From Chiloscyllium plagiosum (taxonomy: Eukaryota), in the NCBI RefSeq assembly GCF_004010195.1, contig NC_057755.1, positions 8,807,685-8,871,684 on the forward strand: DNA of 64,000 nucleotides. Direction: 5' to 3'. The notes below the pieces were generated by a model. The model was not told where the DNA came from, searched no databases, and saw only the letters and a list, made by a program, of their open reading frames with translations. Numbering within the stretch: position 1 is the stretch's first letter; every line of letters begins with the position of its first letter. The position numbers and the translations under genes are program-made. Below are positions 10,451 through 54,014 of the stretch, in pieces.

Positions 10451-10459
10451 CGTAGTAAT

Positions 10460-14455: not shown

Positions 14456-15150
14456 CACGTTCCTCTGAGGTTTATTGCAAAACAGAACATACCTGAAGAA
14501 TAAATTGTCACTAATTTCTTGAGAATAAGAAATGGATATTTTGGCCATGTGTACTCAAGTACAGAAGTATATGAGTACAGTGAAAAGTGCGCGTTGTCAC
14601 CATTCCCAGCATCACCTTCGGAACAAACGTCCCTCAGTTCAAAATCTTAAGTATAAAATAGAAAAAATAATGTTCAAAGATTAGTTTTGAAATGTTTTTT
14701 CAAAGACAGAACAATATGCTGCAGTTTGCAATAAAGCTATTTTGTACCAGATGTAGCTTTTCCTTCGGTATTGCCTTTAAAATAAACAAAATACTGCGAC
14801 AGGTTTTCCAATGAGTGGAAATCACTCAATGAGTAGTACTCATGCCCTTTTCTTTCTGATGAAAGAATGGAACTCTGCATTTCTGAGAGGAGATTCCATT
14901 TAGCGTTACCGTCATGAATGTGGAACTGTACTTCCAGCCTGACAGATCATTCCTGACTGGAACTGTCTTATAATGCAGAACGTAACTGCATTTGACAGTG
15001 CTGTAAGAGTAAGGTGCCAAATGGTTAATGATGTAGGACTTCAGATTAATCGGGTGCCAGTTGGTTAGATTGTCAAGGTGCCAGCTATGTAGAGTGCTGA
15101 CTTGTGAGGAGTTTGAATGCTGACTAGAATGTGGGTAGTGTAGGGACAGA

Positions 15151-23470: not shown

Positions 23471-23473
23471 AAA

Positions 23474-25510
23474 TAAACAGGACGGTCAAAGGTTCTGTTT
23501 ACTCTGAGAGCTGACTCTGAAGAAATCAGAACGATATGAAATACTTTACATGTGTAAATAAAGGGTGACTTGGTTATGGGATAACTACCTCTGTTGACGT
23601 ATTTCATTGGCAACGAGAGAGAGATTAATGAAGTATGCATGCAACAGTGCTTACCAGATGAAGTTCAGTTGGACTTCAATCAAACATATTAAATGATTTT
23701 GTCATTCGAAAATGTATCGAGTGGAGCATATCATTTGCAGGGTATGTCGGCCCACGTGGACACTCTCACCAGGTCACCTGGTCTAGGGGGACGCCATTTG
23801 CGTGAAGGCAATTGCATTGCCTCAGGACATATCGTGAGCGGATGGCCTCCAGGTCACCTCACACCAAAACCTCGATCAAAGCCAAACCTCGGCCAAATTG
23901 TTGACATTTTCTTCAGGATCGCAATCAGTAAGCCATTGTACTTGCTGCCGGTTTGCGTACTTGAGACATTGAAAGAGGCCCACGAGACGAGAAGTGAGAC
24001 AGAGAACTGATCGGCCGACATCCAGATGAGTGCGTACTCTGGAAAGCCTCCCTACAGTGGGCGTGAAGTTGATTTGCAACGTCCAGATTAGAACCCATCA
24101 AAATGAACATCTGGTGAACAGGTCACCATGTACTAACGTAGGTAGATACCGACAGAGCCGTATCAGTGATTGCAGAACCAATCTTTAACAGAGCTCGCTT
24201 GTGACTCCAACTGTTAAATTTGTGTAAGACCTTGGCGAGACTGACAACCTAACTCGAGGAATCTTTACAGATTACGGGGACAACTTCGGTTCTAGTCTTG
24301 TCTCAGAAGCAGCAGGTTAAGTTCTCACTGATTGTGGTAAAAGGCTCACGCCAAGTCTGAAAGGAGAAATCGGTCGAAAAAGGTTCATTTTAATTAGCTC
24401 AGCGCTTTTCGATTAGAAAATGGCTACTTGAGTGAAGTCTGAATGAAATTACCAGAGCTTTTTCAGGACGGTCTAGGGATTTCCAAAGGAGCCAAGGGCA
24501 CCTTTCATGTTGACCAGAAAACAATTTGCCGATTCTGTGAGGCCGGCTCAGTGCCATTTACCCTACAGGGAAAAGCAGAGGCAGAAATCAGGTGGCTGGA
24601 AAAGGAAGAAATCATCAACCCAGTACAGTTTGCAAAATGGGCAGCACCAGGCATACCAATTGTTAAAGCTGAATTTTTCGGTTTGCCATTGTGGGGATTT
24701 TCAACAAACTGCAAACTAATTTTCAGAGCTGGACAAATACCAAACCCATCATGAGAGCGAAAAGCATTTTATTTGGCAAAGCAAGAGGGATTGTCCTGAG
24801 CAAAGGTCTCCACCAGCCACTAGATGAACACCAGCGGGAAAATCCAAGAGTGCCCAAATTGAAGACGTTGGCGACAAGTTATGTCTGGTGACCGGGATTG
24901 GATGCCAACATCACCTCATTAGTGAGGCAGTGCCCAGAGTACCAACAAGGATCAAAATTACCACCAGATGTTGCCGCTCCCATACTCAAGGGAACGGCGG
25001 GGTTAACGCTGGACTCAGTTACACATGATGACAACTTTCCTTTCATTGGCTCAATGTTTTTGGTTTTAGTGGTTAGGGTTCATTCAGCAAAATTCGCAAT
25101 GATGATTGAAAAGCTGTGAGCATCATCTATGACGCTTGGACTCCTGGACGTATTGGTCACGGACAATGTGATGTTACTTCCAGCAGGGATTTCCAGTATT
25201 TTTTTCTGATGTTGAATGGCATCCAGAATGTTCAGCCCATTGCATAAAGCCATAATCTACTGGTCTGGCAGAAGGAGCAATCCGAACATTAAAGAAACAA
25301 CGCACAACTTCATTTGATTTCATACTATCCCATTTCCTGTTTTGATTGTCAGACCATACCTCATTCAATAACGGAGATAACTCCAGCAGAGTTGCTGACG
25401 GGGAGAAGATTCCAGACCAGGTTGAACCTGATGTTCCCGACCTGGGGGGAGGGTAAAAAAAATCAGGAACAACAATACCATCACATGCCTCCTCTTAGCG
25501 ACAGAGGCAG
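23474..25510 (+). mobile_element. Gypsy-type LTR retrotransposon remnant (LTR 3' part, PBS, gag-pol fragments)
   Basis: LTR ends ...aataaagggtgacttgg...atttca at 23606, then PBS-like tggcaacgag. Degenerate protease (VDTDRAVSVI), ELFQDGLG..KGAKG and integrase pieces (KLKTLATSYVW, PAELLTGRR). Confidence 0.8.
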
Positions 25511-25659
25511 TTTAAAATTAAATCAATAGTAAGACACAAATTTGGGTCAGATGATGTAGAATCTGTTTGGGTAGAACTGGGCAACCGCGAAGGTAAAGAA
25601 ACTACAGCTTGAGTAATGTCCAGGCGTCAAAACAGTGGTCAGGAGGTGAGGCGCAACAT

Positions 25660-26372
25660 ACCTTGGAGTGCAGGTTCATAGCTACTTGAAAATGGAGTCG
25701 CAGGTCGATAGGATAGTGAAGAAGGCGTTTGGTATGCTTTCCTTTATTGATCAGAGTATTGAGTACAGGAGTTGGGAGGTCATGTTGCGGCTGTGCAGAA
25801 CATTGGTTAGGCCACTTTTGGAATATTGCATGCAATTCTGGTCTCCTTCCTATCGGAAAGATGTTGTGAAACTTGAAAGGGTTCAGAAAAAAATTACAAG
25901 GATATTGTCAGGGATGGAGGATCTGAGCTACAGGGAGAGGTTGAACAGGCTGCGGCTGTTTTCTCTGGACCGTCGGAGGCTGAGGGGTGACCTTATAGAG
26001 GTTTACAAAATCATGAGAGACATGGATAGGATAAATAGACAAAGTCTTTTCCCTCGGGTCAGCGAGTCCAGAACTAGAGGGCATAGGTTTAGGGTGAGAG
26101 GGGAAAGATATAAAAGAAACCTAAGAGGCAACGTTTTCACGCAGAGGGTGGTACGTGCGTGGAACGAGCTGCCAGAGGATGTGGTGGAGGCTGGTACAAT
26201 TGCAACATTTAAGAGACATTTAAATGGGTATATGAATAAGAAAGGTTTGGAGGCACATGGGCCGGGTGCGGGCGGGTGGGACTCGTTTGGGTTCGGATAT
26301 CTGGTCGGCATGGACGCGTTGGACCGAAGGGTCTGTTCCCATGCTGTACAGCTCTATGACTCTAAGACTCTA
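25660..26372 (+). mobile_element. Younger CR1/HER1 LINE 3' fragment
   Basis: Open RT C-terminus LVRPLLEYCMQFWSPSYRKDVVKLERVQ...FTQRVVRAWNELP and ctctatgactcta tail. Confidence 0.88.
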
Positions 26373-28409
26373 TACACCCGGAGATACAAAAGATGTGTAA
26401 GGAAGGCAACATTACAGTGATCATAGGGCATTTCAGGCGAACTGGCTAGGTGAGGTTATTAGTCGAGTGCAAGAAAATAAATTTGATTAATGTCTTCTGG
26501 ATGGTTCTTTTGCAGCAGCTTGTGGTGGAGCCCATTCGGGAACACTCAATACTGGATTATTGTTGTGCAAAGAAGCAGAGTTGTTAAGGGAGTTCAAGAT
26601 GAAGGAACCTTTCAGAAGCAGTGAACAAAGTAAGGTTGAATTTCCTCTGCAGTTTGAGAGGGAGAAGGCAGAGTCAGATGTACCGGAATTACAGCTGAAT
26701 AAAGGCAACGGTAGAGGCATGAGTGAGGAGCTGGATAGAATTGACTGGGAGAGGAACCGAACTGGAAAGACAGTGGAACAGCAATGGCAGGGGTTTCTGA
26801 GGGCAATTCAGGAGACACAACAGAGACTCATCCTGAGGAAAATGATGCATGGTAATGGGAAGCGACGCAACCACGGCTGACTAGGGAAGTCAGGGATAGC
26901 ATAAAAGCAAAAGAGAAAGCAAAATATGTGGCGAAGAGCAATGGAAAACCAAAGGATTGGGAAGTTTACAAAAATCAACAGAGGGCAACAAAAAAGGAGG
27001 GAGAAGATTAAATATGAGGGTACACGAGCCAGTAAAATAAATGAAGAATGCAAGTGTTTGTTTAGATATGTAAAAGGGCAAAATAGAGGCAAACGTGGAC
27101 ATTGGGCCGCTGTAGAATGACGCTGAAGAGATAGTATTGGGGACCATGCAAATGTTTGGGGGAGTGAATAATTTTGCTTCGTGTCAGGCTCCACAATGGA
27201 AGACACGAGTAATATCCGCAAAATTGAACAGAGTAAGAGGGGAGAGATAAGTATGGTGCCCATGACCAAGGAGAAGGTACGAGAAAAACTGAATGGCCTG
27301 AATGTGGATAAGTCACCTAGACCAGATGGACTACACCTCAGAGTTCTAAAGAAGATATCTGAAGATGTAGTGGGGGCAGAAGCCATGACGTTTCAGGAAT
27401 GGCCACAATCAGTGAGGGTCCCAGAGGACTGGAAATTCTGCAATGGGACACCCCAGTTTAAAAAGTATGTAAGGCAAAACACCGAAAGTTACAGACAAAT
27501 TAGACTAACATCGGTCGTGGTTAAGATCCAGAAAGCATTGTGAATGATTAAATTTCTGAATATTTGGCAAGTGTATGCTCAAATAGGGCATAATCAGCAT
27601 AGTTTCAGCAAGGGGTTATCATGCAGGTCAAATCTGCTGGAATGCTCTAAGGAAGTAACACGCAGCTTGCAACAAGAGGGGGGGCGATGTATGTTATCTA
27701 CCTGGACTTCACTAATGCCTTTGACAAGATACCACACAGGAGGCTACTGAGTAAGCTAAGAGCTTGCGATATCAGAGGCAAGATGCTAGAATGGATAGCA
27801 TTGTTGACAGAGCAAGAGCAGAGAGTGGGGAGAAAAGGGTCCTTCTCAGGATGGCAGTAGGTGACAAGTGGTGTTCCACAAGGCTTCGTGTTAGGTCCAC
27901 AAATTTTCAGTTCATACGTTCACGACTTAGATGAAGGAACTGAGGGCATTCTAGCGACGTTTGCAGGCGAAACGAAGATAGGTAAAAGGACAGGGAGAAC
28001 TGAGGAGGTGGGGAGGTTGCGGGAGGATTTGTACAAGTTAGATGAGTGGACAAAGAAGTTGCAGATGCAGTATAATGTGGCAAAGTGTAAGGTATTCCAA
28101 TTTTCGAGAAAAAATCGAAGCATGGAATTTTCCAAATGAGGAGAAAATTTACAAGTCTGAAGTGAAAAGAGACTTCAGAAACTAGAAAGGAGTTCTAGTT
28201 CAGGATTCTCTCAAGGTGATCTTGCAGGTTGAGGCAGTGGTTAGGAAGGAAAATGCGCTGGTGGCATTCATTTTGAAAGAACGTGAACATATAAGCAGAG
28301 ATTTACTTCCGATAATCTATAAGGCTCTGGTAAGACAACATTTGGAGTATTGGGTGCAGATTTGGGCCCGATATGTCAGGATGTACTAGCCAACATTCAG
28401 AGGAGGCTA

Positions 28410-29650
28410 AGTAAAAACAAGGATTGCAGATGCTGGAAACCGGAGTCTAGATTAGAGTGGTGCTGGAAAAGCACAGCAGGTCAGACAGCATACGAGGAGC
28501 AGGAAAATCGACGTTACAGGCAAAAGGCATTCATCAGTGATAGAGGCAGGGTGCCTGCTGAGTGGAGAGATAAATGAGAGGGGGTGGGGGTGGGGAGAAA
28601 GTAGCATAGAGTAAAATAGGTAACTGGGAGTGGTGATGAAGGTGATAGGTCAGAGAGGAGGGTGGAGTGGATAGGTAAAGGAAGATAGGCAGGTAGGACA
28701 GGTCATGAGGGCGATGCTGAGCTGGAAGGTTGGAGCTGGGGTGAGGTGGGGGAAGGGGAAATGAGAAACTGGCGAAATCCACATTGATACCATGGGGTTA
28801 ACGTGTTCCGAGGCGTTCTTCCTCCAGGCATAGGGTGGTGAGGGAGCAGCGGTGGAGGAGGCCTAGAAGCTGCATGTCCTTGCCAGAGTGTGCGGAGGAG
28901 TTGAAATGTTGGGCCACAGGGCGGGTGCGGGTGTCCAGGAGATGTTCCCTAAAGCGCTCTGCAAGGAGCCTTCCAGTCTCCCCAATGTAGTGGAGACCAC
29001 ATTGGGAGCAACGGATGCAACAAATGACATTGGTGGATGTGCAGGTAAAACTTTGGTGGATGTGTAAGGCTCACTTGGGGCCTTGGATGGAGGTGAGGGA
29101 CGAGGTGTGGGCGCAAGTTTTGCAATTCCTGCGGTGGCAGGGGAGGGTGCCAGGAAGGGACGGTGGGTTGTTGGGGGGCGTGGACCTGACCAGGTAGGCA
29201 CAGAAGGAAATGTTTTTGCGGAAAGCGGAAATGAGTGGAGGGTGAAATATATCCCTGGTGGTGGGGTCCGTTTGGAGGTGGCGGAAACATTGTCAGATGA
29301 TGTGGTTTATGCGAAGGTTGGTACGGTGGAAGGTGAGCACCGTGGGGCTGTGTCCTTGTTACAGTTGGAGGGTTGGGGTTTGTAGGAGGAGCGGCGGGAT
29401 ATGGACGAGATCCGTTGGAGGGCATCTTTAGCTACGTGGGACCGGAAATTGTGGTCTTTAAAGAAGGAGGCCATCTGGTGTGTTCTGTGGTGGAACTGGT
29501 CCTCCTGTGAGCAGATACGGCGGAGGCAGAGGAATTGGGAATACGGGATGGCATTTTTGAAGGAGGTAGGGTGGGAAGATATGTAATCCAGGTAGCTGTG
29601 GGAATGTGTGGGTTTGTAAAAATGTCAGTATCAAGTCGGTCGTCAAGGCT
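28410..29650 (-). mobile_element. Penelope-like element fragment
   Basis: RT C-terminal and GIY-YIG remnants (CIRCSQCGLHYIGETG) plus terminal repeat ctagattagagtggtgctggaaaagcacagcaggtcag. Confidence 0.8.
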
Positions 29651-30114
29651 CACGGGAAGGCTCACGAGAATGGATCCAGGAATGAAAATCTTACCAGATG
29701 AGGAACGTTTGAGGACTGTGGGTTTATCCTTGATGGAGTTTATAAGGATGAAGAGGCATCTCATTGAAATGTACAGAATATTGAATGGCCTGTTCAGAGT
29801 GTATGTTGGGAAGATGGTTCCATTGGTAGGACACGAGGGTACAGCCTTAGAGTAAAGGGAAGACTTTTTGGAGCAGAGGTAAGGAGAAACTTCTTCAGCC
29901 GGAGCGTGGTGAATCTACGCAATTCGTTGCCACAGAAGGTAGTGGAGGAGGACAGGTCACTGAGTACATTTAAGACGGAGGCACATAGGTTCTTTAGTAT
30001 CAAGTGAACCAAGGGTTCTGGGGAGAAAGCGGGAGAATGAGGTTGAGAAACATATCAGCCATGATTGAATGGTGGGTAGACTCCATTGGCAGATTGGCTT
30101 AATTTATGATCTGG

Positions 30115-31210
30115 ACTTCGGGTGACAACATTTGGTGTTGAAACCACAGAAATGTCGAAGTATGGATATGAGGCAGAGTCGATGTGAGGTTAGGTCCCAT
30201 AAATTACATAGTTTGTGTAAGTCAGGCAGTCTTACACATGTAGATCATATGAAAGCTGCTACATTGCAAACGAGGCAGGAGCAAGTCATACCTATCTCCT
30301 CAAACAGCCAGAAAGTCTGTTCCAAACAGTGGATTCTCCACCAATGTCGAGTGTCAAAGAAACTTGAAGAAGAGGATGGAACTCTCCCGAGACGCTGCAG
30401 GTGGAAGAGGCTGGTTTCGGTCCAGGAAACATCGCCTGTGACTGAAGCAGAGTCAGAGGAAACAGACCTGGGGTGAACACGGCCCGGGAGAAGCTACAAG
30501 GTAAAGATCAGACTTACTTCCTCCGACTTGGTGGGCAAGTAACATCATCATTGGAACTTGGGCCTTGTGGATTACATTGACTATGAGATCCTTAAAGGTT
30601 TTGTCAACCTGGGCCAATCAGGGAGCCCTGGCTGACAGATGTAAACTGCATATTGTCTCTGCCGAATGCCTGTCCCTCTTCTGCAATGAGGTTGGAGCTG
30701 GGTGTCCTTGACAAGGGAGCATGTAGTGACTACCAATGCCTAAAGGGAGAAGTTGTGATTGCGGCACTAGAGTGCTTTATTTTCCCCTCCAAAATCATTT
30801 TCATTTCGTCTTTACCCTTCCCTGCTCTTTCATTTTCTTTTCTCACTCATGCCTTGCTCTTATTGGGCTTTGCTTGTTAATGGTTACTTGGCCACACGGA
30901 TGATTTTCCTGGTGGTGAAATTATAGCATAAATTTATTTCACAATGGTGCCTTTTTCACTGACTCTGTGCACACACACACACGCAGCCACGAATGCACGG
31001 GCGCTGTGGGGGAAATATCAGCGCTACTACAGTGCAGTGGTCACCTGGGAGTGTTTTTTTTAAAGAGAAAAAGAAAATAAAGGAAAAACAGGAGGACCTC
31101 TTGGCTCCAGGCACTGGCTTTGAGGTGGCTGTTTGGAGCCCATGTGCTGTGCGTTTGTAATAAAGGGTGACTTGGTACAGGGTTACCGACCTCGGTGCAG
31201 TTATTTACGT
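30115..31210 (+). mobile_element. 3' end and 3' LTR of the Gypsy remnant (LTR ~30540-31210, containing a Tx1-like insert)
   Basis: HVDHMK integrase-tail remnant and LTR ccaatcagggagccctggctgacagatgtaaac ... aataaagggtgacttgg...cagttattt. Confidence 0.7.
30655..31086 (+). mobile_element. Tx1/L1-clade non-LTR retrotransposon, 5'-truncated (ORF2 C-terminus + 3'UTR + A-rich tail)
   Basis: AECLSLFC...REHVVTTNA..ALECFIFPS resembles the Tx1 ORF2 C-terminus, followed by an A-rich tail. The paralog at 55542-55984 reads AECLSLFCSDVRGRVSLER*HAMSANALDALRER. Confidence 0.6.
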
Positions 31211-32039
31211 GTTAAATGAAAGCATTCCTTTGTCATGAATGTGAATTGATTGGAAATCTGAACTAGAATAAAAGAGAACAGTCACTTGGGTGTTGGCAGA
31301 TTGAGTCTGGCGGGTGCCACAAGGGAGGAAACTAAATCCACAACTATTTTCAATCGGTTACATGAGCACAAATTGCTAGGTGCGTTTTTCTTTTTCTTTT
31401 TGCAATGTTGCAGACATTGGAGCTGTGCCAGCATTGATAGCCCGTCCCTAGTTGCCCCTTGAAGGTGGTGTATTTCTGCTTATTTTCACTTGCTGTGGGC
31501 TGACCCACAATGCCCTTGGCGAAGAAATTCCAGGACTTTGATCCAACAACAGTTAAGGAGCATTTCCCAGTCTAGATGGTGACCTACTTCGAGGAGAATG
31601 TGCAGGGGGTGGTGTTCCCATGTATGTGCTGCCCTTGTCTGGTTGGAATTGATCATGTATTTGAAGGTGCTATATGAAAATCTTTAGTAAAGTTCTGCAG
31701 TGTATCTAGTAGACGGTACACACATCTGCTGCTGCCTGCCACTGTTGGAGGGGCTCTTTGTGTGTGGATTTAGTTACAATCAAGTGAGTTGCTTTATCCT
31801 GAATGGTGGGAGTCAAAGAATGTGTTTCTGGAAAGGTACAGCAGGTCAGGAGGCATTTGAGGTGCAGGAGAGTCGACGTTTCGGGCATAAGTCCTTTATC
31901 AGGAGTGTTGGAATAGTGGGCCCAAGGGGGCTGAGAGACAAATGGGAGCAAGGTAGGGCTGTGGGGGTAGGAGGGGGTGAACGGTCACTTTCTCCTTGAC
32001 CGTGATGGTGTCAAGCTTCCTCAGATTGCTTGGGGCTTT

Positions 32040-32330
32040 ACCATTGCAGGTAAGAGGATTAAGGGGCATCAAGGGAAGACTGAGATCCCTGAGAGAGATT
32101 GGAGATTTTCGAACTACTTGACACAGAGGTGTGGATTAACAGTCCTGCCTATATTTAAGGCAGAAAGAGACAGATTCCTGATCAGTTGAGGATTTATGGT
32201 TTATGGGGAAAGTTGCAGGAAAGTGGGCATGATTACTGTCGGACCAGCCATGATCCTATTGAATGATGTACCAAACTCGAGGGGCCGAACGGTCTTCTCC
32301 TGTTTTCGATTATTATAGCATTATGGTCTT
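32040..32330 (+). mobile_element. CR1-like LINE 3' end fragment
   Basis: atttaaggcagaaagagacagattc..cagccatgatcctattgaatg..ctcgaggggccgaac. Confidence 0.55.
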
Positions 32331-33468
32331 ATAGACCATCTGCTCTATAAGTAAAGGAGCCACCGATCTTCACGCATCCCTTGTTAGAGACGAATGACTG
32401 AAGACAATCACTTGACACTCAGTTCCATTCCAAACATCAAATGGTTGATTTCATAAAAAGCAGAGAGTAATTCGCAGGGTCGACTATGTGCTTATGCACC
32501 GAGCAAAGGAGATCCTGCACTTTATTTACTTTTAATTCAGCACATCCTGGCTGGTTCATGATTTCCTTCATAATGGGTCGCAGTGTTCAAGAATTTTCTT
32601 GATAATTAGTGTCCATGCTCAGTATTTGTTTCACAGTGAATCTTGGTGCTGAGTCTATGTTCAGGGAGCTGCTAGGATACGAAAAGTTAAATGAACATCC
32701 ACTGTACGTTGTAGTTAGAATGCTCGGAAATAAACAGGAGACAGTAACAATAAAAAGTCACAATTGCAGACAGGGACTGAAACTTTAACTGGCACTTTAT
32801 AACAGCTTAAACTAAACAAAACGTGAGCTGCACACAATGAAGAATTTTCAGGAATGTTGACGATGGGCTAGTTACAATGATGGAGGGTGGGGCATGGTAT
32901 AGAACAATGTGGACAACTAGGCAAGTTGTTTTTAGGAAGCAATGCCAGAGACAAACTGTGAACTGTGGAAGACACTTTTAAATATTGTACGTTATGGTCC
33001 CAGTTTCTTAATATTACAGGTCCAACCAGATCCTGGAATGAGTGGAATTTGGAAGATTTTAAGATTAATCTTTGCATTTGGCTGCCATTGATCATATGCA
33101 CATCAGGTTATCACTTTCCTTTCAACAAAAGAACATAAACTTATTGATGAGAAAAAAAAAGCCAAAAATAAATTGGAAATCGGAAAATGTTTTCACATGA
33201 AACAGCAAAAGAAAGACTCAGGCCTTTGACCAGCAACATCCGTCACACATTCTCAACCTCAGTGAAATATTATTCAAAATTTATTTCATCAATTTTGTGC
33301 ACACCTGATTATTAACAGTTTTTATGGCCGAGAGGCGTCTTTCCAATTCTGAGGACATAGAATTAATTTCAGTTAATGCAGACAAGGAAATTTCACAAGC
33401 TCTTTCATCCTGGGGATCCTGTTGTACGACTGGAAATACATATTCAAATCGAGGTCAAACTTATATGC

Positions 33469-34373
33469 TTATTTGAATAGTTTAACAATTCGAGTAAATG
33501 GATATTTTACACCGTTGATTAACTCCTCTCTGAATTTCGTTTGTGTTAAGGCGTATATGCAGGTGTTGGTGCATGAACTCAGAAGCCGTAGCATGAATCC
33601 AATTTCTTGAAAGACAAATACTGAATCATTCAAAGTCTTGTCCTTATAATTATGGTTTACTTCTCGCCGGATTAAAACTCGTATGACAAGTGGTGTCCAC
33701 AACAGTACAAAATTAGCAGACAGTGCAAAAAGCAAAATGATGGATTTTCTCCGGTTTACCACCTCTGGATCAATATTGTTCTGTCCATTTCCGTTGATCT
33801 GGAGGCGACAGCGGATGTTGTTGGCTCTTATAATATGCCTGACAGTCAGAGCATTGAACATCAAAATCAATACAATTGGAAGGAATGGTATCATTATAAT
33901 ATTAATCAATACATACACTTTCCAAAATATTGACTTGTAATAGGCTGATGTTATGATGCAAAACCACGGTACATTGTCAATAACAACTGAAGGAATAAAT
34001 ACAAAATACCAAATAAATGACCGCAAACAGCTGACCGCACTCACAGTTACTATAACCACCAATGCAGTTTTTCTATTACAATATCTTGCTCTTAGCTTGT
34101 GGCAACAAACTGCGACAAACCGATCAAATGTGAAAGCGACTGTGAACCAAACAGAGCAGTCTAGGGCTGCAATATAGAAAACAACTCTCAAGGCACACAC
34201 AGGAGTGATGAATAAGAAAGTAACTGGGAAATAAAGATTATTAATACGGTCCAGTAAGATATTAAGGATGACGAGAAGCAGATCTGCTGTAGACATTGCC
34301 AATAGATAGCGAGTGATGCATTTGGAGAGCCCACAATTGCCTCGTTTCAGGATTATAATTCCCACTAAATTAA
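33469..34373 (-). CDS. GPR139/GPR142-like class A GPCR, copy B, coding exon 2 (intact; 324 aa with exon 1)
   Basis: Open frame with TM segments and class A motifs: AMSTADLL (TM2), C3.25 (TPVC) exactly 25 residues before R3.50 of FDRF, PFLP (TM5), LWTP (TM6), NTCIY (NPxxY variant), KFREE helix 8. Acceptor ttcag ends at 34374. 905 nt + 70 nt exon 1 = 325 codons including TAA. Confidence 0.9.
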
Positions 34374-34498
34374 CTGAAAGAAAAATAAGCAAAGGTACAC
34401 GCCTTCGTAACTGGAGTCACAGCAAAAACATCAACATAATATGTATGCTAAATCATGCCAATTGCCTCAGATGTATATATTCACTCAATTACATGATA

Positions 34499-34729
34499 AA
34501 TGGTCTAGATTAGAGTGGTGCTGGAAAAGCACAGCAGGTCAGGCAGCATCCGAGGAGCAGGTATATCGACGTTTTGGACAAAAGTCCTTCATCAGGAAGC
34601 CCTGATGAATGGCTTTTGTCCGAAACGTCGATTTTCCTGCTCCTTGGATGCTGCCTGACCTGCTGTGCTTTTCCAGCACCACTCTAATCAAGACTCTGGT
34701 TTTCAGCATCTGCTGTCCTTGTTTTTACC
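34499..34729. mobile_element. Palindromic Penelope terminal-repeat element in the intron of copy B, 9-bp TSD
   Basis: Inverted arms ~34504-34595 and ~34600-34693. TSD tacatgata at 34490-34498 and 34730-34738. Absent in copies A and C. Confidence 0.85.
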
Positions 34730-34853
34730 TACATGATACATGCTGAGAAGTTACAATGAAAACATTGACTCAACCAAACCAGAATGACATAAAGGCATTT
34801 TGAGAACCAATGGACAAACCGAATAAATGAACAAATAAATGAGGAATAAAACC

Positions 34854-35278
34854 TGTTATGAATGAAAAGCTCAGCTTTTCTGTGGTTTGGTTTGCTTTGA
34901 ACAGGCTGTCAGTGGTGAACCTGCAGGAGCCAAAGAAGCAGGCCCAGGCTGATCCTCCGTCTCTCAGACATCTCTTCTGTAAGAACCTGGGTTTGATTTT
35001 ACCCTTTGTGCCAATCGGTGCTATGGGGATTGTAATTGGAACAGCAGCGCTAATTTGGAATAATTTGCTGGGTTTTCAGAATAGGTTAAGTTATTCTCTG
35101 TTCTGTTCACTTTTGTTCCTGTTTCATTTGATTATCTTGCAAATAAATGTTGTTTTCTTTAAAACTAAGTGTTTGGGCCAGCTGTATCACACCTGGAATA
35201 TCCACCTCATACCTGCAATTTATGGCCTTCGCTACTTTCTTGAAATGTTTTGACGGGGTTCTTGCCTTGTCCATAACA
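34854..35278. mobile_element. Solo LTR or LTR fragment
   Basis: Perfect termini TGTTATG...CATAACA with an internal aataaa. No TSD seen. Confidence 0.6.
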
Positions 35279-35845
35279 GTTTGGCATTGTGGCTTCCCAT
35301 TGTATGTGCACAGAATTAATTTGTCAAAAAAAATTTAAAAGCTGCGAGCATAATTTATGATGTTTGGACTCCAGAAAGCTTTGGAAGCTGGATCACTAAA
35401 AGCATTTGAAAAAGAGATCGATAAACTTTTGAAATACCAAGACGTTGAAAGCTATGTGGAATTGGAATGAAAGAAGTTTTGAGACTTGAGGTAGATGAGC
35501 CATGATCTTATTAACAGCCGGCAGTCTTGAGGATCGCATGCTTCTGCTCCTGTTTCTGAGTTTCTTATATCATATCAGAAATTCTTAAGCATCATGGAGG
35601 TGTGAGAATTCGAGCTTTGGAGAAGATCAACATATTGGAGGGAGAACTTCAAAGGGCATCAGCAAAATGAACTTTGTGTACCATCCTGTTTGAACTTTGA
35701 GCTATAAAAATAAATCTGAATAAGAACATAAGAGTGCGGAACTCCGAGAAGAAGACTTTGAGGACCACACTCAGAAATGCATGCTTTGCTGTAGGGATAA
35801 TAAATTGACTGAGGTATACAGAAACCCACAATTGTTTGCAATTTG

Positions 35846-36195
35846 CAAGGTGGCTCAATGGTTATCACAGCTGCTTCATAACACTAGGGGCCCGGGTTTG
35901 ATTCCACCCTCGGACTCGTGTCTGTGTGGAGTTTGCATATTCTCCCTGTGTCTGTGTAGGTTTCCTCTGAGTGCTCCAGTTTCCTCCCACAACCCAAAGA
36001 AGTGTAGATTAGCTGGATAGGCACGGTACGTTGGCCCATTGTATCAATGGATGCGCAGGCTTGGTGTGTTAGCCACGGGGAATGCAAAATTAGGGGAAAA
36101 GCGTCGAGTGGGGCTTGGGGATGGATTAGATACTCTAAGGAGGATTGGTGTGGACTCGATGGGCCGAATGTCCCACATTGTAGGGATTTTATGAA
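35846..36195 (+). mobile_element. HE1-like SINE (positional paralog of 5627-5985)
   Basis: ggtggctcaatggtt A box and tgtgtggagtttgcatattctccctgtgtctg body. Confidence 0.75.
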
Positions 36196-36934
36196 CTGTT
36201 CTGCGGAAAGAAATTCAGCAAATTTTAAAGCGTTTAGAACTGATGACGAACAAGGATTCTTCTCATAGAATCTGTTATCCTGCTCATTGACCTTGACAAG
36301 AGGATTTCCATTTGATAAAGTGATGATGGTAAATTGCACAAGTGAACTTTACTCTCTATTCCAGGAGTAAAAGAAGAACACATTTAACTCAGTCCATGCA
36401 AAGCAATGTTGGAATAAAAATCTGAACAAGTGATGTCACACCATGTATAATCTGATTTGCTTCCCTTCATAGACATTGCCAGATAATTAAAAGCATTGAT
36501 ATGTTTTCAACCTCTGGAGAAGGTGGTACTTGAAGCTGGAACTCCCTGGTCGACCAGTCCGGATGAATACCATTAATACAACATAGTTGATTGTTGCTGT
36601 GAATGTACTTGGGAGACAATGTGACACACCTCTTTGCAATTGTAACAGTCAGATTGTAGATGCACGTACTAATCTCAGGCGCCAAACTGTGTAATTATTT
36701 ATTCAAGCTCACAACAGACAGACCCAGCGGCAGCAGTTTTTATGTGGGCAGAAGCCGATGCTGCTAATCTGATGGTCCACAATTAAAGTTATTTTGAATT
36801 GCTGTATTTGATAATGCAGGACAATATTTTACATCTTCTGCTAATCACTGCCTTAAAAACAGTCAAAGAACGAAAAGAGATCACAGGACCACTCGATCAC
36901 AAGGAATCAGAAAAATATCTTTCAATAAAGTAAG

Positions 36935-37675
36935 GTCCGAGGGAGTGTTGCTGAACCAAGAGACCTTGGAGTTCAGGTTCATAGCTCCTTAAAAAGTGGT
37001 GTCGCAAGTAGTTAGGATAGTGAAGAAGGCGTTTGGTATGCTTTCCTTTATTGGTCAGACTATTGAGTACAGGAGTTGGGAGGTCATGTTGCGGCTATAC
37101 AGGACATTTGGTTAGGCCACTGTTGGAATATTGCGTGCAATTTTGGTCTCCTTCCTATCGGAAAGATGTTGTGAAACTTGAAAGGGTTCACAAAAGATTC
37201 ACAAGGATGTTGCCAGGGTTGAAGGATCTGAGCTACAGGGAGTGGCTGAACAGGCTGGGGCTGTTTTCCCTGAGCGTCGGAGGCTGAAGTGTTGACCTTA
37301 TAAAGGTTACAAAATTATGAGGGGCATGGATAGGATAAATAGGCAAAGTCGTTTCCCTGTGGTCGGGGAGTTCAGAACTAGAGTGCATAGGTTTAGGGTG
37401 AGAGGGGAAATATATAAAAGAGACCTAAGGGACAACGTTTCCACGCAGAGGGTGGTACGTGCATGGAATGAGCTGCCTGAGGATGTGGTGGAGGCTGGTA
37501 CAATTGCAACATTTAAGAGGCATTTGGATGGTCTATGAATAGGAAGGATTTGAAGGGATATGGGCCGGGTACTGGCAGGAGGTACTAGATTGGGTTGGGA
37601 TATCTGGTCGGCATGGACGGGTTGGACCGAAGGATCTGTTTCCATGCTGTACATCTCTGTGACTCTATGATTCTA
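36935..37675 (+). mobile_element. CR1/HER1 LINE 3' fragment
   Basis: LVRPLLEYCVQFWSPSYRKDVVKLERV; closely similar to 25660-26372. Confidence 0.88.
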
Positions 37676-39821
37676 ATGCGAACATTTGTCACAAAACTAT
37701 TGCAATTATCACAAATAAATGAACTTAGATTGCACTCCGTGGAAAGCGTGATCTCCTAACATACGTAATAAAAGTAAAAGTCTCATGTACTCATTAGTTT
37801 CATGTACTCATTAGTAGATATTTAACACTTTCCACAACATGTCATGAGCGGTTTTGGGCCCCATGTCTAAGGAAGGATGCTTTGGACTTGAAGGGGATTC
37901 AACGGAGGTTCATAAGAATGATTTTGGGGATGAAGGATTTGTCTAATGAGGAGCAGTTGAGGACTCAGTGTCTGCACGCAATTGGGGTTTAGAAATACGA
38001 AGGGGAATCTGATTGAAACTTATGGAATACTGAAGCTCTGGATAGAGTAGACATGGAGAAGATGTTAATACTAAAAGGACACATCAGGACTTGAGGACAC
38101 AAAGTCGGGTAAAGGGATGTCCCATTAGAACTGTGACAAGGAGGAATTTCTTTAGCCAGAGGATGGTGAATCTGTGGAATTCATTGCCACAGAAAGGTCC
38201 TGGAGACCAAGCCACTGAGTGTATTGAAGAAAAATAGTTTTTGATGAATTAGGGGATGATGGGTTACCGGGAGAAAGCAGGAAAATGGGATTAAGAAACA
38301 TGTCGGCCTAGATTGAATGGTGGAGCAGGTTTGTTTGGTCGAATGGCCTAATTATGCTCCTTTGTCTTATCTTCTTATGATCTTATGGGTAAGGAGTAAA
38401 TAACCTTTCATCCACACAACTATCAGGCAATTACCATTTTCAACAAAAGAGATTCTAAACAACGTCCTTTGGTATGGAAAAATATTGTCATCAATTATTC
38501 CACCACTATTCATATCCTGGGGATTACCAATGTACCAAACCAGCTCTGCTTTAGTCATTTAAGTATTGTTACTAAAAGAGCAGCTCAAAGGATCGAAATC
38601 TTGCTGCGAAAATCTCATCTCCTGAATCTCCAAAACTTGACCCACTATCTACAAAGCACAAGTTTGGATTATGGTGGAATACCGTGCACTTGTCTGGATG
38701 GATTCAGCTCCATCAAAACAGTCCAGAAGCTCAACACTATTCCTGGACAATGGGAGTTCTGGAAAAGATTCACAACAGACTTGAAAAACTTAACTTTTGC
38801 TTCTCTCTCCACTGAAACTGCCAGATCTGCTGGGTTTATCTAACGTTGTCTTTGTTTATTGCAAATATCCAGCATACACAGTAGTTTGCATTTATTCCAG
38901 GATATATCAACCCACTTGATTGACATCCAAACCACAAAACTTCAGTCTGTCTCCCTGCCACTGCAGCTCAGTGACAGCAGGGTGTACCTGACACATTGCA
39001 GCAAGGTGCACAAGACACATTGCAACAGTTCATCAAGGTCCCTCAGACAGCTCCCTCTCAACCTGACAGCCACTACTATCTAGAAGAAGCAGATGGATGG
39101 TAATGACACCATTTGCAAGTTCAGTTCAAGACTCTCAACTTTCTTGCTTAAAACACATCACCTTTCCTTCAGTGTTTCTGGATCAGTTAAAAGACATTTG
39201 GACAGCTCCATGGATAAGAAAGGCTTTGTATGATATGGATCAAATACTACGAAATGGGACTAGTTCAGTTGAGGAAAACTGGTCAGCATGGATGTGTTGG
39301 ACCGAAGGGTCTGTTTATATGCTCCATTTCTTTATGTGGGTGCTCTTACATCAAATGGTCTGCAGTGGTTTGCGAAGACAGCTCAGCACCACGTTTTGAA
39401 GTGTAACTCGGGATGGGGAATAAATGCTGACTCAACCTGCTCTGTGTTGAAACTAAATTCTCTGCAAATAAATTATAAATAAACCTGCTTCAGCAGCCGA
39501 AATAAACAACAACTAATGTGAACTGGTAAAATCACTAGGAAAGCATAGATCGGAAATAATCGAATCTGGGTAGTATGTCAAATATCAATAAGGAATGAAA
39601 GAGTCAGGCTAAATAGCTTTTCTACAAACGCAAACACCAAAAGAACTATGGATGCTGTAAATCAGAATCAAAAACAGAAGTTGCCTGAAACGTTCCGAGG
39701 AAGAGTAATCGGACCCACAATGTTAATTCTGATTTCGCTTCCCAGATGCTGCCAGACCTGGTTAACGTTTCCATTAATTTCTGTTTTTGTTTAGTTAAAC
39801 ATAATTGGATTTAAGACTTAC

Positions 39822-39891
39822 CAATAATGCCAACAGCTGCAAGTATTGGGTAGTAAATGCGTGCTATCTGTAAGATTGTAGAGTATTCCAT
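39822..39891 (-). CDS. GPR139-like GPCR copy B, coding exon 1 (MEYSTILQIARIYYPILAAVGII + G)
   Basis: ATG at 39891, 23 codons + 1 nt, donor GTAAGT at 39821-39816. Phase 1 joins exon 2 as ...GII-V-NLVGII, completing TM1. A homologous exon lies at 11830-11899. Confidence 0.85.
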
Positions 39892-39939
39892 TCTCTCCCA
39901 GTCAGGTCTCTCTGTTTCATGGAGTCAATGATTTTGTCT

Positions 39940-40030
39940 GCCTCATTTTATTTACAAGTTAAATGTGCAGTGAGACAATAAATCTGGTTGAATCACTAAT
40001 TACATCATTTGCAGTAATCTGAATAAGCTG
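39940..40030 (-). promoter_or_regulatory. Putative proximal promoter/5'UTR region of GPCR copy B
   Basis: TATA-like TAAATAAAA about 55-65 nt upstream of the ATG. The block is conserved with copy A (~11978-12066). Conservation could simply reflect the duplication. Confidence 0.3.
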
Positions 40031-41559
40031 CGAATTAAGCACTTTCCTCTGAGGTTTATGAAGCAATAGAATCTACTTTGAGAAATAAAATGCCACTAAT
40101 TTCTTGAGGATTGGAATTATATTTTATTATCATATATATTGAAGAACGGAAGTACATGAATAGAGTGAAAAGTGTAAAATGTTGCTATTCATGCAAAGCT
40201 ACCTTGGTACAAAATCATAGGTGCATGTAGAAACCTAATGTTAAAAGTTTAAAATTACTGGCTTCTTAGCATTACGTTAAAAATAATGAAATAAAGGAAT
40301 AAATTAAAAGGCTAGGTTTGAACTACTTTTGAAAGGCGGGACAATGAACTCCAGTTTGAAAAATGACATTCTGTAAGAGACTGAGATGCAACTTTTCGTT
40401 CATTATTGCCTTTTAAATTAATAAAATACTGGAGGGGTTTTTCAGTGAGCGGGAATATCACACAGATTGCTACTCGGGCGCTTTTTTTTTCTGATGCAAG
40501 AACTGGGTTCTGTATTTCTGAAAGTTGATTCCATTCAGGGTTGCCCTGAGGACTGTGGAACAGTACTTCCATTCTGACGGATCTTTCCTGGCAAGAACTG
40601 TCTTATAATGCATAATGTAAGTGTGAATTGACAGTGCTGTAAGAATAAGGTGCCAGGAGGGTAATGATGTAGGGCACCAACTTTATAGGGTACAAGTTGG
40701 TTAGGTACCAAGGTGCCAGGTACGTAGGGTGCCAACTGGTGAGAGGTTTGAATGCTGGCTGATGCTATGAGTCAGTTGTTACTGCTGTTGTTGGTTCCTG
40801 CTTCTTTTTTGAGGGAATCCTGATTACTGAACTGGCTGAGTTATTCCGCCAGTTTGTTAACTGTTATTCCTTTTTTTAGTGAGGACTAATGTCTAAACTG
40901 CTTGGTCCACACAGTCAAAGTGTTTCAGGTGTAACTCAGTTCTCATCAGGGATCTGTTGTTTCACTGGCTGGTTACAGCCTGTGTGTTACTCTTTTCTCT
41001 TTGATTTTGAGAAACGGACTATACTGATTTTATAGCAGGGCTCAGCGCTTAGACTCTAGTTTTCTTCGGTTTTTGTATGTGTCTTCACTCTTTTGATGTT
41101 TGAACTGAGCTCTTGTGAGAAATAGCATCTTACCAGATGAGCTCTTCCTGTGGGAACGCCTAGCCCTGGGAGTGGGCCTCTGCAAAGACCGAACACCTGT
41201 ATGATGGGAGGTGAGCACAGACCGCTGTCGCCCTGAGATGTGGGATTGGGGAAGCAGAACGGGCTGTCCTAGAGGTGGTCGGAAGGTGTGTCAGGGCGGA
41301 CCAAAAACTGGAAGGAGTATGGGGTGGACCGAGAACCGGAATGTTCTTGGGGGCGGCCTGCCTTAGAGTGGACGGAACATGGGGGACTGTGGGGCTTGCT
41401 GGGTTTCTGGCGGTCTGTACTTTTTAAATGTAATTTAATGTCTTGTATGAACAAATGTCGTTGCTCCTCTTTTGTTATGTTTGAAACTAGGATTTGAGGT
41501 TTGTCCTCATTTCCCTGAAATCTAATTGAATGGTAGGGTTCGGGGCATGACTGTGTTGC

Positions 41560-41850
41560 TTCTCGCAGATACCTTCTCCTACTGCCCCCTTGACCATGAC
41601 CCCACCCCCCACCACCAAACCATCATCTCCCAGACCGTCCATAACCTCATCACCTCGGGGGATCTCCCATCCACCGCCTCCAACCTCATAGTCCCACAAC
41701 CCCGCACCTCCCGCTTCTACCTCCTGCCCAAAATCCACAAACCTGACTGCCCCGGCCCCATTGTCTCATCCGCCTGCTCCTGCCCCACCGAACTCATCTC
41801 CGCATACCTTGACACCGTCCTGCCCCCCTTAGTCCAAGAACCTCCAGCTA
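41560..41850 (+). mobile_element. Penelope-like RT fragment
   Basis: HQTIISQTVHNLITSGDLP..PRTSRFYLLPKIHKPDCPGPIVS.CSCPTELISAYLD. Confidence 0.8.
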
Positions 41851-43090
41851 TCTGCTCTGACAGAGAATGATGAAACAGCTTCCACAGCCAACTTCAAAAC
41901 CCCAACAATTAAAAACTAAGTTAAAATCATGGTTCTATGGGAGCCTGATGCCACTTGTTTCAAGTTTTTTAAAAAAACCCAGGGCCTCACCAGCTGTTTA
42001 CTTTGTTGGTTTTGAAGAGACAACTCGATACTCCTGGCTCAAAACCTCTCTGAATCAAAAAGACAAAATGCACCCCTCAAAGCCATAGCAGCTTCACTTC
42101 TCCCTGAAAAGGATGAATCACAATAAACAAAGATGGCATAACTTAAAAAGATCTTTAGTCGTACACAATTAGTACACTACAATACATATACATTGACTAA
42201 TGCAAATATTCAATATTACAGTCCATTTCTTCCACCACTGAACACCTTTGTTTTCCTTCATGAGAATGTATCGGTAATTCTCCTGCCATGTGTTTAATTT
42301 TCAAATGAAATGACTGGAACAATGAACTTCATCTGAATTATCTAGGTATTTTAACCTTTAAAATTTTCCAAAAATGTTAAGGCGTTTTGATCAATAGAAG
42401 TACAATTGTCCCAGACACATTTATTGACAACATAAATATTGAAATGTTGTGACATCAACATCAAACTCAAGAGCTTCCCAATTGTGGAATATTTCTGTTG
42501 ATGAATATTCAACTTTCTGGAAAAATCTCCAAAAGGTCTTTCGACTTTCTCATTGTCTTCTTGCAAGAGTACTGCACCAGTATCCAAATCCCTCATATCG
42601 ATAGCCACCTTGAATGGCTTTGCCATTTGTAATTAGATGTGGCTAACACTGAGGCTGTCGTTAACACAGCTCTCAGGCTGTCAAATACCTTCTGATGTTC
42701 TACCATCCTCTGAAATTTTCTGCACTTCTTCAACAACTCTGTCAATGGAGTAACGTCACTGCTAAACTTTGGTATGAATTTTTGATTAAAAACCATTCAG
42801 TCCCAGGGATTGTAGCACTTCCCTTTTCATCAATGATATGGGAAACTCCCCAATACTCTCTGTTTTCACATCCCAAGGGGACATTTATCCATGTCCAATG
42901 ATATGGCTTAGGAACGTGACTTGGACTTTTGCAAACTCCCTCTTAACCAGGTTTATCACCAAGCCCGCCTTCTGTATTTGATCAAACAATTTTGATAGAT
43001 GCTCCAAATGTTTCTTCTATGTGTGATTAAAAATCGCCAGACCATCCATGTACACCACACATTTGGGTAATCCCAAAATGACCTTTTTTT
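41850..43090 (-). mobile_element. Gypsy RT/RNase H fragment
   Basis: KFIPKFSSDVTPLTELLKK..LTTASVLA and KPFKVAID..GAVLLQED..FSRKLNIHQQKYSTI. Confidence 0.8.
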
Positions 43091-43245
43091 CTTAGCCTGC
43101 TGGACAAACTTTCCTCATTCCTGAAGAAGGGCTAATGCCCGAAACGTCGATTCTCCTGTTCCCTAGATGCTGCCTGACCTGCTGCGCTTCTCCAGCAACA
43201 CATTTCCATCTCTGATCTCCAGCATCTGCAGACCTCATTTTCTCT
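43090..43245 (+). mobile_element. Penelope terminal repeat
   Basis: cctgaagaagggctaatgcccgaaacgtcgattctcctg..gatgctgcctgacctgctg. Confidence 0.8.
43118..43152 (+). ncRNA. Minimal type I hammerhead-ribozyme-like motif (intact core)
   Basis: CUGAAGA (43121-43127), A, stem II GGGC-UAAU-GCCC, GAAA (43141-43144), CGUC cleavage site with palindromic ACGU stem III. Confidence 0.6.
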
Positions 43246-52200: not shown

Positions 52201-54014
52201 TTGTGACGACAGTGAGATTAATGGCGTAAGCATGCAAAGCTGCCTACTACCTAATATCCAAGTGGACTTCAACCAGACATTTCAAACGGCTTTCTCATTT
52301 GAAAATGCATCAAGTGAAGCATATCAATTGCAGGATATGCCGACGGACGAGGCCACTTTCAAAAGACCAAATGGACTTGGGGATACCACTTGAGAGAAGG
52401 CAATTCCATCACCACAGGACATATCCTGAGCAGACTCACTCCAGGTCAGCACACACTAAACCCACCGCCTCCGCACAAAAATGTCAAACCTTGGCCAAAC
52501 TGGGAACATTTTATTCAGGATCGAAGCCAGCAAGCCATTGTATTTGCTGCCGGTTTGCGGACTTGTGACAGTGAAAGAGTCCCAGCTGGCCTGTTGTGAG
52601 TAAAAGAACTGATAGACCGGTATCCAGGAGTGTGCACACCCTGGAAATCCCACCTTCAGCTAGCTTGCAAGAGTTAAATTGCTTAGCAACATCCAAGTTA
52701 GAACCAATCAAAACCAACATTTGTTTAAATGGTCACCTGGTTCTAAAGGAAGTCGATACCAGCACCGCTGTATCAGCGATTGCATATCGAATCTTTAACA
52801 AAGTTCGCTCAGGACCCATATTCTTAAGCTTGTGGAAGACTTCAGCTCGACTGAGAAACATATGCGAGGCAACATTTACAGATTAAGTGGACAACTTCGT
52901 TTCCGGTCTTGTGTGAGAAGCAATTGGTTCAGTTTCCACTTGATTTCTCGAATTTCTCGATTAGAAAATAGTGCCTTTTGTTTTCTCAGTTACGGGATGA
53001 GGATGTCACTGCATAACGAGCAGTCCTTCCCAGTGGACAGTAAAGAGTCAACTGCATGTAGGCCTTCCCAAAAGGACATTGTTGGTCCAGACGGGTTTTT
53101 CCAACAATCGAAAACAGACTCCTGGTTATCACAGACTCATGATTGAAAATGTTCATGGAATTCAAATTCTACTATGGCAAGATTTGAAGCTGGGCCCTGG
53201 AACATTACCGGGATCTCGAGGTGAATGTGCTGTGATAACACTTGACTATTGCCTCCACGCTAAAGTGAAGCCCGGGCTTGAGTGAAGACTGAATGAAATA
53301 CACAGAGCTTTTTCAAGAAGGTCGAAAGATTCCCAAAGGAGCCAAGGCCACCTAGCACGTTGACTGGCAAACAATTCCCCGATTCTGAAAGGCCTGTCTG
53401 GTGCTATTTTCCTTTAGTGGAAAGGCAGAGGCAGAAATCAGAATGCTGAAAAGGGAAGGAATCATCAAACTAGTGCAGTTTGCAGAATGGGTCGCACTGG
53501 GAAGAACAATTGTGAAATCTGATTGGTCAGTATGCCATTGTGGGGACTTAAACAAACTGTAAACCAATTCTCATAGCGAGATAAATCCGCAATCCCTCAT
53601 TACAGAGGGCGGCATTTTATTATGGGGTGCAGGAGGGATTGTGCTGAGTAAATGTGTCCACCAGCTACTATTTGAACACCAGCAGGGTCATCCAAGGGTT
53701 TCCAAAATTAAGATGTTGTTGAGACGTTATGTCTGGTGGCCAGGATTGGATCCAGCATAGCCATATTCGTGGAGCAATGCTCAGCATTACAACAATGCTA
53801 AAAATTACCACCTGAACGTTCCTTCCATAGTCATGGAAATGGCTGGGTTAACACTGAACTCAGTTACACGTGAACTATACGGACCTTTCACGAGCTCAAT
53901 GTTCTTGGTTGTTGTGGATACCGGCTCACAGTGGTTAGGGTTCATTCATCAATCTCTGTGATGATTATTGCAAAGCTGTGAGCATGATCTTCAATACACA
54001 GACTTCTCGAATTT

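Follow-up and report, generated by a model that had tools for sequence, protein, structure and literature searches.

Three copies of a class A GPCR gene, A, B and C, were located on the minus strand of the 64-kb window, i.e. the whole stretch of DNA that was analysed. The question raised by the locus is why copy B departs from copy C at nearly every residue of one stretch of TM6, and whether the departure reflects a changed ligand preference. The coordinates of the features are collected in Table 1. The two exons of B, joined by a splice that was deduced from consensus sites and homologues rather than from RNA, give an intact class A GPCR frame of 324 residues, and exon 1 matches the N-termini of the relatives P0001, P0003 and P0005. 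The first exon of C was looked for in the 64-kb window and was not found. The premature stop codon of C, a point absent from the initial annotation, cuts off the last 18 residues, a part of helix 8 included. Because the branch omega of C was about 0.22, corresponding to purifying selection, the break may be recent, a tolerated truncation or an assembly error. As A is dead in both exons and C is cut at codon 307, B is the sole intact copy in the window. Private changes of C were also noted: R4.55Q, F3.51C and 7.33D.

Table 1. Features of the receptor copies and of the repeats in the window; positions are counted from the first letter of the window.
Feature	Position	Strand	Description
Copy A exon 2, pseudogene	587–1473	(-)	stops, frameshifts, deletions
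Copy A exon 1 remnant	11830–11899	(-)	TTG for ATG, in-frame TAA, altered donor
Copy B exon 1	39822–39891	(-)	70 bp: ATG, N-terminus, first half of TM1; phase-1 GT donor
Copy B intron	34374–39821	(-)	5.4 kb, GT...AG, phase 1; repeat fragments inside
Copy B exon 2	33469–34373	(-)	second half of TM1 to stop
B Asp2.61 (His in A and C)	34249–34251	(-)	acid gained at pocket rim; common to P0002
B 3.31–3.33 FYI	34171–34179	(-)	conservative changes at family-variable positions
B TM5 face V/N/I/I (5.39/5.42/5.43/5.46)	33889–33912	(-)	replaces conserved E/D/S/T
B TM6-top block 6.49–6.61, TPLVIRVLIRREV	33658–33696	(-)	12/13 differ from C
B TM7 and start of helix 8, residues 279–306	33526–33609	(-)	no amino-acid difference from C
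Copy C exon 2	57559–58466	(-)	widespread EDSTYHSW face kept
Copy C premature TAG	57616–57618	(-)	codon 307; GAG in B
Degenerate repeat array upstream of first exon of A	15100–23500		period about 1.6–1.9 kb, copies 65–80% identical; inverted copies within 15–23 kb
Degenerate repeat array upstream of first exon of B	40700–52100		period about 1.6–1.9 kb, copies 65–80% identical; head-to-tail within 43–52 kb
359-bp inverted repeat in intron of A	3229–3587 and 4288–4646		arms 97.8% identical and separated by 700 bp; may be a young element of the DNA-transposon type
Direct duplication upstream of C exon 2	59793–60848		about 530 bp, 82% identity
Decayed ORF fragments, which we take to resemble LINE reverse transcriptase/endonuclease	6336–8236, 25650–27543, 29432–29914, 36930–37675		no Pfam match for ORFs tested in the first three regions

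The copies arose by tandem segmental duplication, as seen from their matching flanks (67–78%; 9831–15125 with 37780–40760, and 23061–25128 and 30131–34496 with 51670–58584). The spacing of the exon-2 copies gives duplication units of about 24–33 kb. With one intact, one truncated and one dead copy in 64 kb, the locus has the tandem birth-and-death pattern of a large repertoire, as is typical of vertebrate chemoreceptor-type families. A Pfam match was obtained with none of the 15 other ORFs of the window that were tested.

By profile, fold and motifs, B is a class A (rhodopsin-like) GPCR with predicted signalling. The Pfam 7tm_1 scores of B and C were 64.4 bits (E=1.5e-17 for B) and 53.4 bits, respectively, against the curated cut-off of 30.5. 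The AlphaFold2 7TM models had pLDDT values of 83 (B, with a pTM of 0.81) and 85 (C), and the model of B matched class A receptors with VIA Z values of 24–26. The landmarks D2.50, C3.25 with the ECL2 cysteine, D-R3.50 (DRF), P5.50, W6.48 and N7.49/Y7.53 (NTCIY) are present in B. The search with B resulted in 1824 clusters at E<=1e-20 among 2971 candidates. In the best 120 of these 1824 clusters, which included 36 from Heterodontus and 25 from Heptranchias, 118 were named, and all 118 were chondrichthyan 'probable GPR139' from 19 species; the search with C adds two species. The nearest relatives of B were from Stegostoma and Chiloscyllium (80–81%), P0001 being the Stegostoma protein with 81%. 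A, B and C are tandem members of a large chondrichthyan orphan class A family annotated as 'GPR139', which is the NCBI name of the shark proteins. A short first exon ending in the middle of TM1 followed by one long exon was found in B and in the remnant of A, and many relatives' protein models part from B exactly upstream of the exon 1/2 junction. Relatives in bony vertebrates, also 'probable GPR139', were detected in Latimeria, Polypterus, Erpetoichthys, teleosts, salamanders and a caecilian (7/10 clusters looked up). They are about 25–36% identical to B and lie outside the 214-row clade of all named shark, ray and chimaera rows (SH-like support 83).

The anchors of the residue numbering were D2.50, R3.50, P5.50, W6.48 and Y7.53, and with R3.50 as anchor C3.25 is in register. 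The alignment with human GPR139 is consistent with this numbering; that of TM4 was assumed, because the family is without W4.50. The residue differences listed in the initial annotation were all reproduced. Over residues 24–113 of B, which run from halfway along TM1 through TM3, the codon alignment shows 12 residue differences from C in 90 positions. Of the 13 residues that follow W6.48 (6.49–6.61), 12 differ, only V6.52 being common to both copies. All four of the TM5 positions 5.39, 5.42, 5.43 and 5.46 differ, with E/D/S/T in C and V/N/I/I in B, and the triplet 3.31–3.33 is MFL in C and FYI in B. Pseudogene A is largely C-like and reads HEWLDS and WVTYIVHSSNWQV. In the TM6 block of B, conserved residues are replaced by Y6.51L, H6.54R, S6.55V and W6.58R. 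In residues 279–308, there were 0 nonsynonymous and 8 synonymous differences between B and C, and as residues 279–306 are identical, Q7.35, E7.36, F7.39 and R7.42 are unchanged. The differing TM sites were counted as 36/92 in the extracellular half and 12/107 in the intracellular half. At the gene-wide omega, the chance of any 13-residue window with at least 12 differences was 5.5e-5. None of the 254 matched-divergence family pairs outside the B clade reached 12 differences in the TM6 block (mean 4.6, maximum 11), and none of 529 family pairs reached 12 in any 13-residue window, the pairs being non-independent in both counts.

The conservation of these positions was determined in 99 relatives, i.e. 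the 106-row subfamily minus A, C and five B-clade rows. The eight positions 5.39, 5.42, 5.43, 5.46, 6.51, 6.54, 6.55 and 6.58, referred to as the face, read EDSTYHSW in C and VNIILRVR in B. In position order, the EDSTYHSW residues are kept in 84, 78, 86, 87, 84, 78, 85 and 96 of the 99 relatives. The corresponding counts for the residues of B, which matter for the reading of selection, are 0, 8, 2, 1, 0, 1, 1 and 0. The identical EDSTYHSW is found in C, Heptranchias P0004, Rhincodon P0006 and Pristiophorus P0038. Since this face is kept in most relatives, C appears to carry the widespread state and the B clade the derived one, judging from the outgroups. B departs at 9 of the 13 conserved TM5/TM6-top sites, the most among the 106 subfamily rows. 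At 3.31–3.33, the commonest residue accounts for 42%, 30% and 43% of the 99 relatives, and the residues of B occur in 12, 23 and 43 of them.

The remodelling had been regarded as confined to copy B, which was not borne out. It is shared stepwise with Stegostoma (zebra-shark) and Chiloscyllium (bamboo-shark) relatives, the intermediate faces being EDIIHRSW in P0001, VDTTYRAW in P0003 and VNVIFRAW in P0002, and the change is therefore a clade-level series and not private to B. R6.54, I6.57 and E6.60 mark the whole B clade; N5.42, D2.61 and R6.59 are common to B and P0002; L6.51, V6.55 and R6.58 are B's own. The 151-row tree gave the topology ((A,C),(P0001,(P0003,(B,P0002/P0145)))). When the variable (trait) columns were removed, the clade of A, B, C and P0001–P0003 was retained with 100/99 and B+P0002 with 84/88 support, and the branching order of P0001 and P0003 was not resolved. 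The face is also remodelled in a Mobula clade, in P0142, in P0033/P0137/P0061 and in P0042 vs P0038, and it differs between subfamilies. Thus, B is the most extreme of several such face changes in the sample and not unique.

Some of these other lineages are worth describing in their own right. The Mobula ray clade (P0010, P0114, P0130, P0138, P0143) has separately lost E5.39, D5.42, Y6.51, H6.54 and S6.55. In Pristiophorus japonicus, the paralogues P0042 and P0038 are near-identical, with terminal branches of 0.018 and 0.006. P0042 is set apart from P0038 by D5.42N and H6.54R, both of which are also seen in the B clade, and the two paralogues form a natural minimal pair for assays. No significant coupling was found across lineages between the losses of D5.42 and H6.54 (median p=0.25). 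Among the non-chondrichthyan relatives, a salamander cluster (P0243, P0296–P0299; Pleurodeles, Ambystoma, Lissotriton) is the nearest one in the tree, on a long branch. Its face is invariant over the three genera, and it is a candidate low-copy outgroup for ligand finding.

Gene conversion from another paralogue had been named as one possible origin of the change. By this route, conversion or unequal crossover would have put the TM5–TM6 segment of a more distant paralogue into B. The clustering of the differences in blocks is in line with such an event, the tandem array permits it, and an unsampled donor among the other paralogues of the genome is conceivable, the donor search having covered 150 other rows. 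No signal of conversion was detected, however. The dS of residues 249–278 was 0.39 vs 0.38 gene-wide, the latter being close to the 3' flank distance of 0.34, and third codon positions differed at 3/13 sites of the block and at 65/287 of the remaining sites (p=1.0). The B segments 163–187, 250–262 and 250–278 were closest to B's own clade among the 150 rows, with the next best match at 5/13. B groups with P0002, within the A/B/C group, in the tree of residues 24–162 as well as in that of residues 163–278, the relatives contain graded intermediates, and no shifted register fits. Conversion is considered very improbable, and the changes of B are likely accumulated point substitutions. A compensated frameshift does not account for the TM6 block, as 23/39 bases match in register vs 8–12 when shifted. 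GC-biased change was not evident either, the B-private weak-to-strong/strong-to-weak changes being 34/31 gene-wide, 8/4 in the block and 1/5 in the TM5 top.

The initial annotation had placed the remodelling specifically at the ligand pocket, which stands for one kind of change and not for another. The pocket was defined by 23 published class A ligand-contact positions (PMC2650788 Table 2), which include 6 of the 8 face positions (5.39, 5.42, 5.43, 5.46, 6.51, 6.55). The raw differences between B and C were not enriched on this list, either against other TM sites (8/23 vs 40/176, p=0.16) or against other extracellular-half TM sites (8/23 vs 28/70, p=0.75). Similar results were obtained with a second list, of 26 positions (10/26 vs 38/173 other TM sites, p=0.06) and with 13 GPR139 contacts (6/13 vs 42/186, p=0.06); against extracellular-half sites only, the three lists gave p values of 0.39–0.75. 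A 41-position 'extended' list was partly chosen post hoc and no weight is placed on its result. The outward-facing or other TM6 positions 6.49, 6.53, 6.56, 6.57, 6.60 and 6.61 change too, R3.28, D3.37 and the TM7 wall are unchanged in B, and 3.31–3.33 and 6.50 are family-variable.

In contrast, the losses of conserved residues do fall on the pocket. Among the conserved sites kept in C, B has lost 6/13 in the pocket vs 7/92 elsewhere in the TM helices (p=0.0012). Compared with other extracellular-half sites, the loss was 6/13 vs 4/24 (p=0.063), two of these four non-pocket sites being 6.54 and 6.58. Without conditioning on C, the difference between pocket and other extracellular sites was not significant (7/14 vs 9/30, p=0.17). 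C has lost 1/14 conserved pocket sites, and the losses in pseudogene A had no pocket bias (4/14 vs 31/104, p=0.65). A fair statement is that one wall, TM5/TM6, was turned over, with its conserved inward-periodic residues and their outward neighbours. The eight face residues would point into the pocket, according to class A numbering and the i/i+3/i+4 periodicity.

Selection was studied with a codon model of three taxa, the three coding sequences of A, B and C, in 9 settings; the high-omega blocks were chosen after the data had been seen. The pairwise omega of B vs C was 0.42 overall, 3.5 in the TM6 block and 0.35 elsewhere. The dN/dS, the uniformity of which had been named as an argument against remodelling, was not uniform along the gene (p=5e-8). 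On the B branch, the omega over the 9 settings was 3.3–6.3 in the TM6 block and 2.0–3.4 in the TM5 and TM6 tops (all p<0.01 vs omega=1 in both cases). The values elsewhere on the B branch were 0.23–0.43, and the omega of C at the TM5/TM6-top sites was about 0. The neutral length of the B branch obtained from codons, 0.56 per codon, was equal to the value from the 3' flank distances. With the pocket list fixed beforehand, however, the omega of B was 0.9–1.4 and not different from 1. The scan-corrected p with a fully neutral null was 0.012 at the best branch length and 0.06–0.38 with longer branches or an omega of 1.25, and the unpolarised scan test resulted in a p of 0.07 when the fitted distance was used, with values reaching 0.43 otherwise. 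In the same model, the omega of the pseudogene branch was 1.9–2.3 with free lengths, indicating that omega may be inflated, and 1.15–1.25 with flank-fixed lengths. Positive selection in B, as the initial annotation had proposed, is likely on the block values, although unproven in view of the pre-fixed list and the scan correction.

The same values can be read as local relaxation. After the duplication, the B lineage would no longer have needed its TM5/TM6 contacts, the ligand having been lost or being held by TM2, TM3 and TM7 only. TM5 and TM6 would then have drifted neutrally at their extracellular ends, with the fold and the signalling half still constrained. The omega of about 1 on the pre-fixed list and the climb of the scan-corrected p with modest parameter shifts are in agreement with such drift, as is the finding that pocket and outward positions change alike, at 12 of 13 consecutive residues. 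Furthermore, B and P0002 still differ at 6/13 block sites, and the extracellular half is the more variable one family-wide. The column entropies were 1.72 for the pocket and 1.49 for other extracellular TM sites vs 0.91 for intracellular TM sites (p=1.6e-7), with no significant difference between pocket and other extracellular TM columns (p=0.26). However, copy A, which is truly neutral, has 82 private changes vs 58 in B and yet no more than 7 in any 13-residue window, and the block omega of B was at least 3.3 in 9/9 settings. R6.54, I6.57 and E6.60, once arisen, were retained by all four distinct clade sequences, and the TM5 changes are helix-compatible and hydrophobic. Relaxation is a possible but rather doubtful explanation. 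The reading to which we lean, judging from the sequences, is that the TM5/TM6 change of the B clade was the result of selection for a changed ligand preference.

A shift in charge had also been proposed, and it was found to be only one part of the change. Arg is indeed present at 6.54, 6.58 and 6.59 of B. Beyond what had been noted, B also gains the acids D2.61, E6.60 and D7.29, so that the charges are redistributed as well as shifted in net. The basic/acidic residue counts of C and B are 5/9 and 11/7, respectively, on the extracellular side, and 0/2 and 4/1 in the tops of TM5 and TM6. Averaged over the eight face positions, the hydropathy rises from -1.84 in C to +1.09 in B. In both AlphaFold2 models, TM6 ends at 6.57, which places Arg6.58 and Arg6.59 at the helix end or in ECL3.

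The changes at the TM6 top might alternatively concern activation rather than ligand identity, the gain of Pro6.50 and the repacking of the TM5/TM6 tops altering the movement of TM6, the basal activity or the gating by extracellular loops. T6.50P does arise within the clade (P0003, P0002, B), non-pocket TM6 positions change alongside, and the pLDDT values of the TM6 top and ECL3 were lower in B (65 and 60) than in C (77 and 79). On the other hand, Pro6.50 occurs in 40/99 relatives, many of them with the conserved face, P0001 has R6.54, I6.57 and E6.60 without the proline, and the extent of TM6 is the same in both models. A tuning of activation is improbable as the main cause.

If selection for a changed ligand preference is accepted, the carpet-shark clade would have exchanged the polar EDSTYHSW for VNIILRVR stepwise and by point mutation, with the order of steps taken from the tree. 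By analogy with the Asp5.42 of TAARs, the widespread acidic and polar wall with D5.42 may accommodate a polar or cationic group. In B, the wall would be hydrophobic and would have arginines near the mouth, one at 6.54 and two at the end of the helix (6.58 and 6.59). Such a wall might favour a neutral or anionic amphipathic ligand, a tentative assignment that leans on the same analogy. The TM3/TM7 side and the intracellular half would meanwhile stay under purifying selection.

The divergence of pockets between duplicated or tandem GPCRs is a well-known kind of event, so the event in B alone is modest. What is described here is a real, clade-level and probably adaptive turnover of one pocket wall in a large, apparently undescribed receptor family. 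The graded living series P0001, P0003, P0002 and B, beside a face unchanged from sevengill to whale shark, is ready for ligand finding and for tests of the shift. No description of the shark expansion was found in the open-licence PMC and bioRxiv literature, and 'GPR139' is absent from the main text of PMC11979771. A 'relative paucity' of GPCRs in cartilaginous fishes is stated in excerpts of a shark genome paper (PMC8455134), and the family was not found in 12 of its 24 supplementary files. A V2R-dominated chemosensory repertoire is described in the abstract of PMC6368271. Should the family have a sensory or immune role, the receptor repertoires of sharks have so far been counted too low. A far wider reading would be that cartilaginous fishes carry a large chemoreceptor-like repertoire, with tens to hundreds of copies per genome, derived from a GPR139-related orphan GPCR, in which the TM5/TM6 face is a ligand code rewritten under selection. 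The B clade would then be one case, in which a cation-binding pocket was rewritten to bind anions or lipids and of which intermediates are still living. As a whole, this reading is speculative and unlikely.

L-Trp and L-Phe activate GPR139 and GPR142, two class A orphans of humans. Human GPR139 was the best sequence match to B among solved structures (E=2e-7), and it matched the shark family profile with E=7.6e-19, the next receptor having 6e-14. Asn5.58 and Asp2.61 align in GPR139 and B, Asp2.61 of B corresponding to D84(2x61) of GPR139, and two coding exons, as deduced for B, are given for GPR139 in excerpts of PMC7318219. The identity of B to human GPR139 was 22–24% in structural alignments; that between human and zebrafish GPR139 is 70% according to excerpts of PMC7318219. 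The core pocket of GPR139, listed in excerpts of PMC7318219 and PMC12775434 as E3.32, F3.33, H5x43, W6.48, R6.51 and N7x38, reads Y, I, N, W, L and F in B, with W6.48 as the one residue of six kept. The fold of GPR139 matched B no better than peptide receptors did (Z 24.5 vs best 25.8), and GPR139 was not singled out in two fold searches, where it ranked 11 and 21. A further difference from GPR139 is the high copy number of the shark family, the pocket of which is variable. Orthology of B and C to GPR139 was rejected on the identity and the core pocket residues. The transfer of its Trp/Phe ligands to the shark receptors was also rejected, because most of the core pocket residues of GPR139 are not kept.

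An orphan group 'GPR210' near GPR139/GPR142 is described for coelacanth, gar and teleosts in excerpts of PMC6504862, in the main text of which sharks and cartilaginous fish are not mentioned. The bony-vertebrate relatives of the shark family may be these 'GPR210' orphans. The Atlas neighbours of the shark family include 'FMRFamide receptor-like' clusters with partial 7TM_GPCR_Srw matches, and GPR139 is described as a relative of the FMRFamide receptor in excerpts of PMC12208981. In Lymnaea, about 450 expanded FMRFamide-receptor-like GPCRs are reported in excerpts of PMC11589774, the ligands of the expanded set being inferred. These invertebrate receptors share the broad neighbourhood and the lineage-specific mass expansion, and they are set beside the shark family by likeness. 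The TAARs are an unrelated lineage; the role of Asp5.42 in the shark receptors is an analogy only, and the C-type receptors have Phe, not Asp, at 3.32. In the clade III TAARs of teleosts, Asp5.42 recognises amines, and both the ligands and the role of Asp5.42 were assayed, as given in the abstract of PMC4695389. These TAARs are tandemly expanded class A receptors in which, by the same abstract, the gain or loss of Asp at 5.42 shifts the recognition stepwise, and B is a receptor that has lost D5.42.
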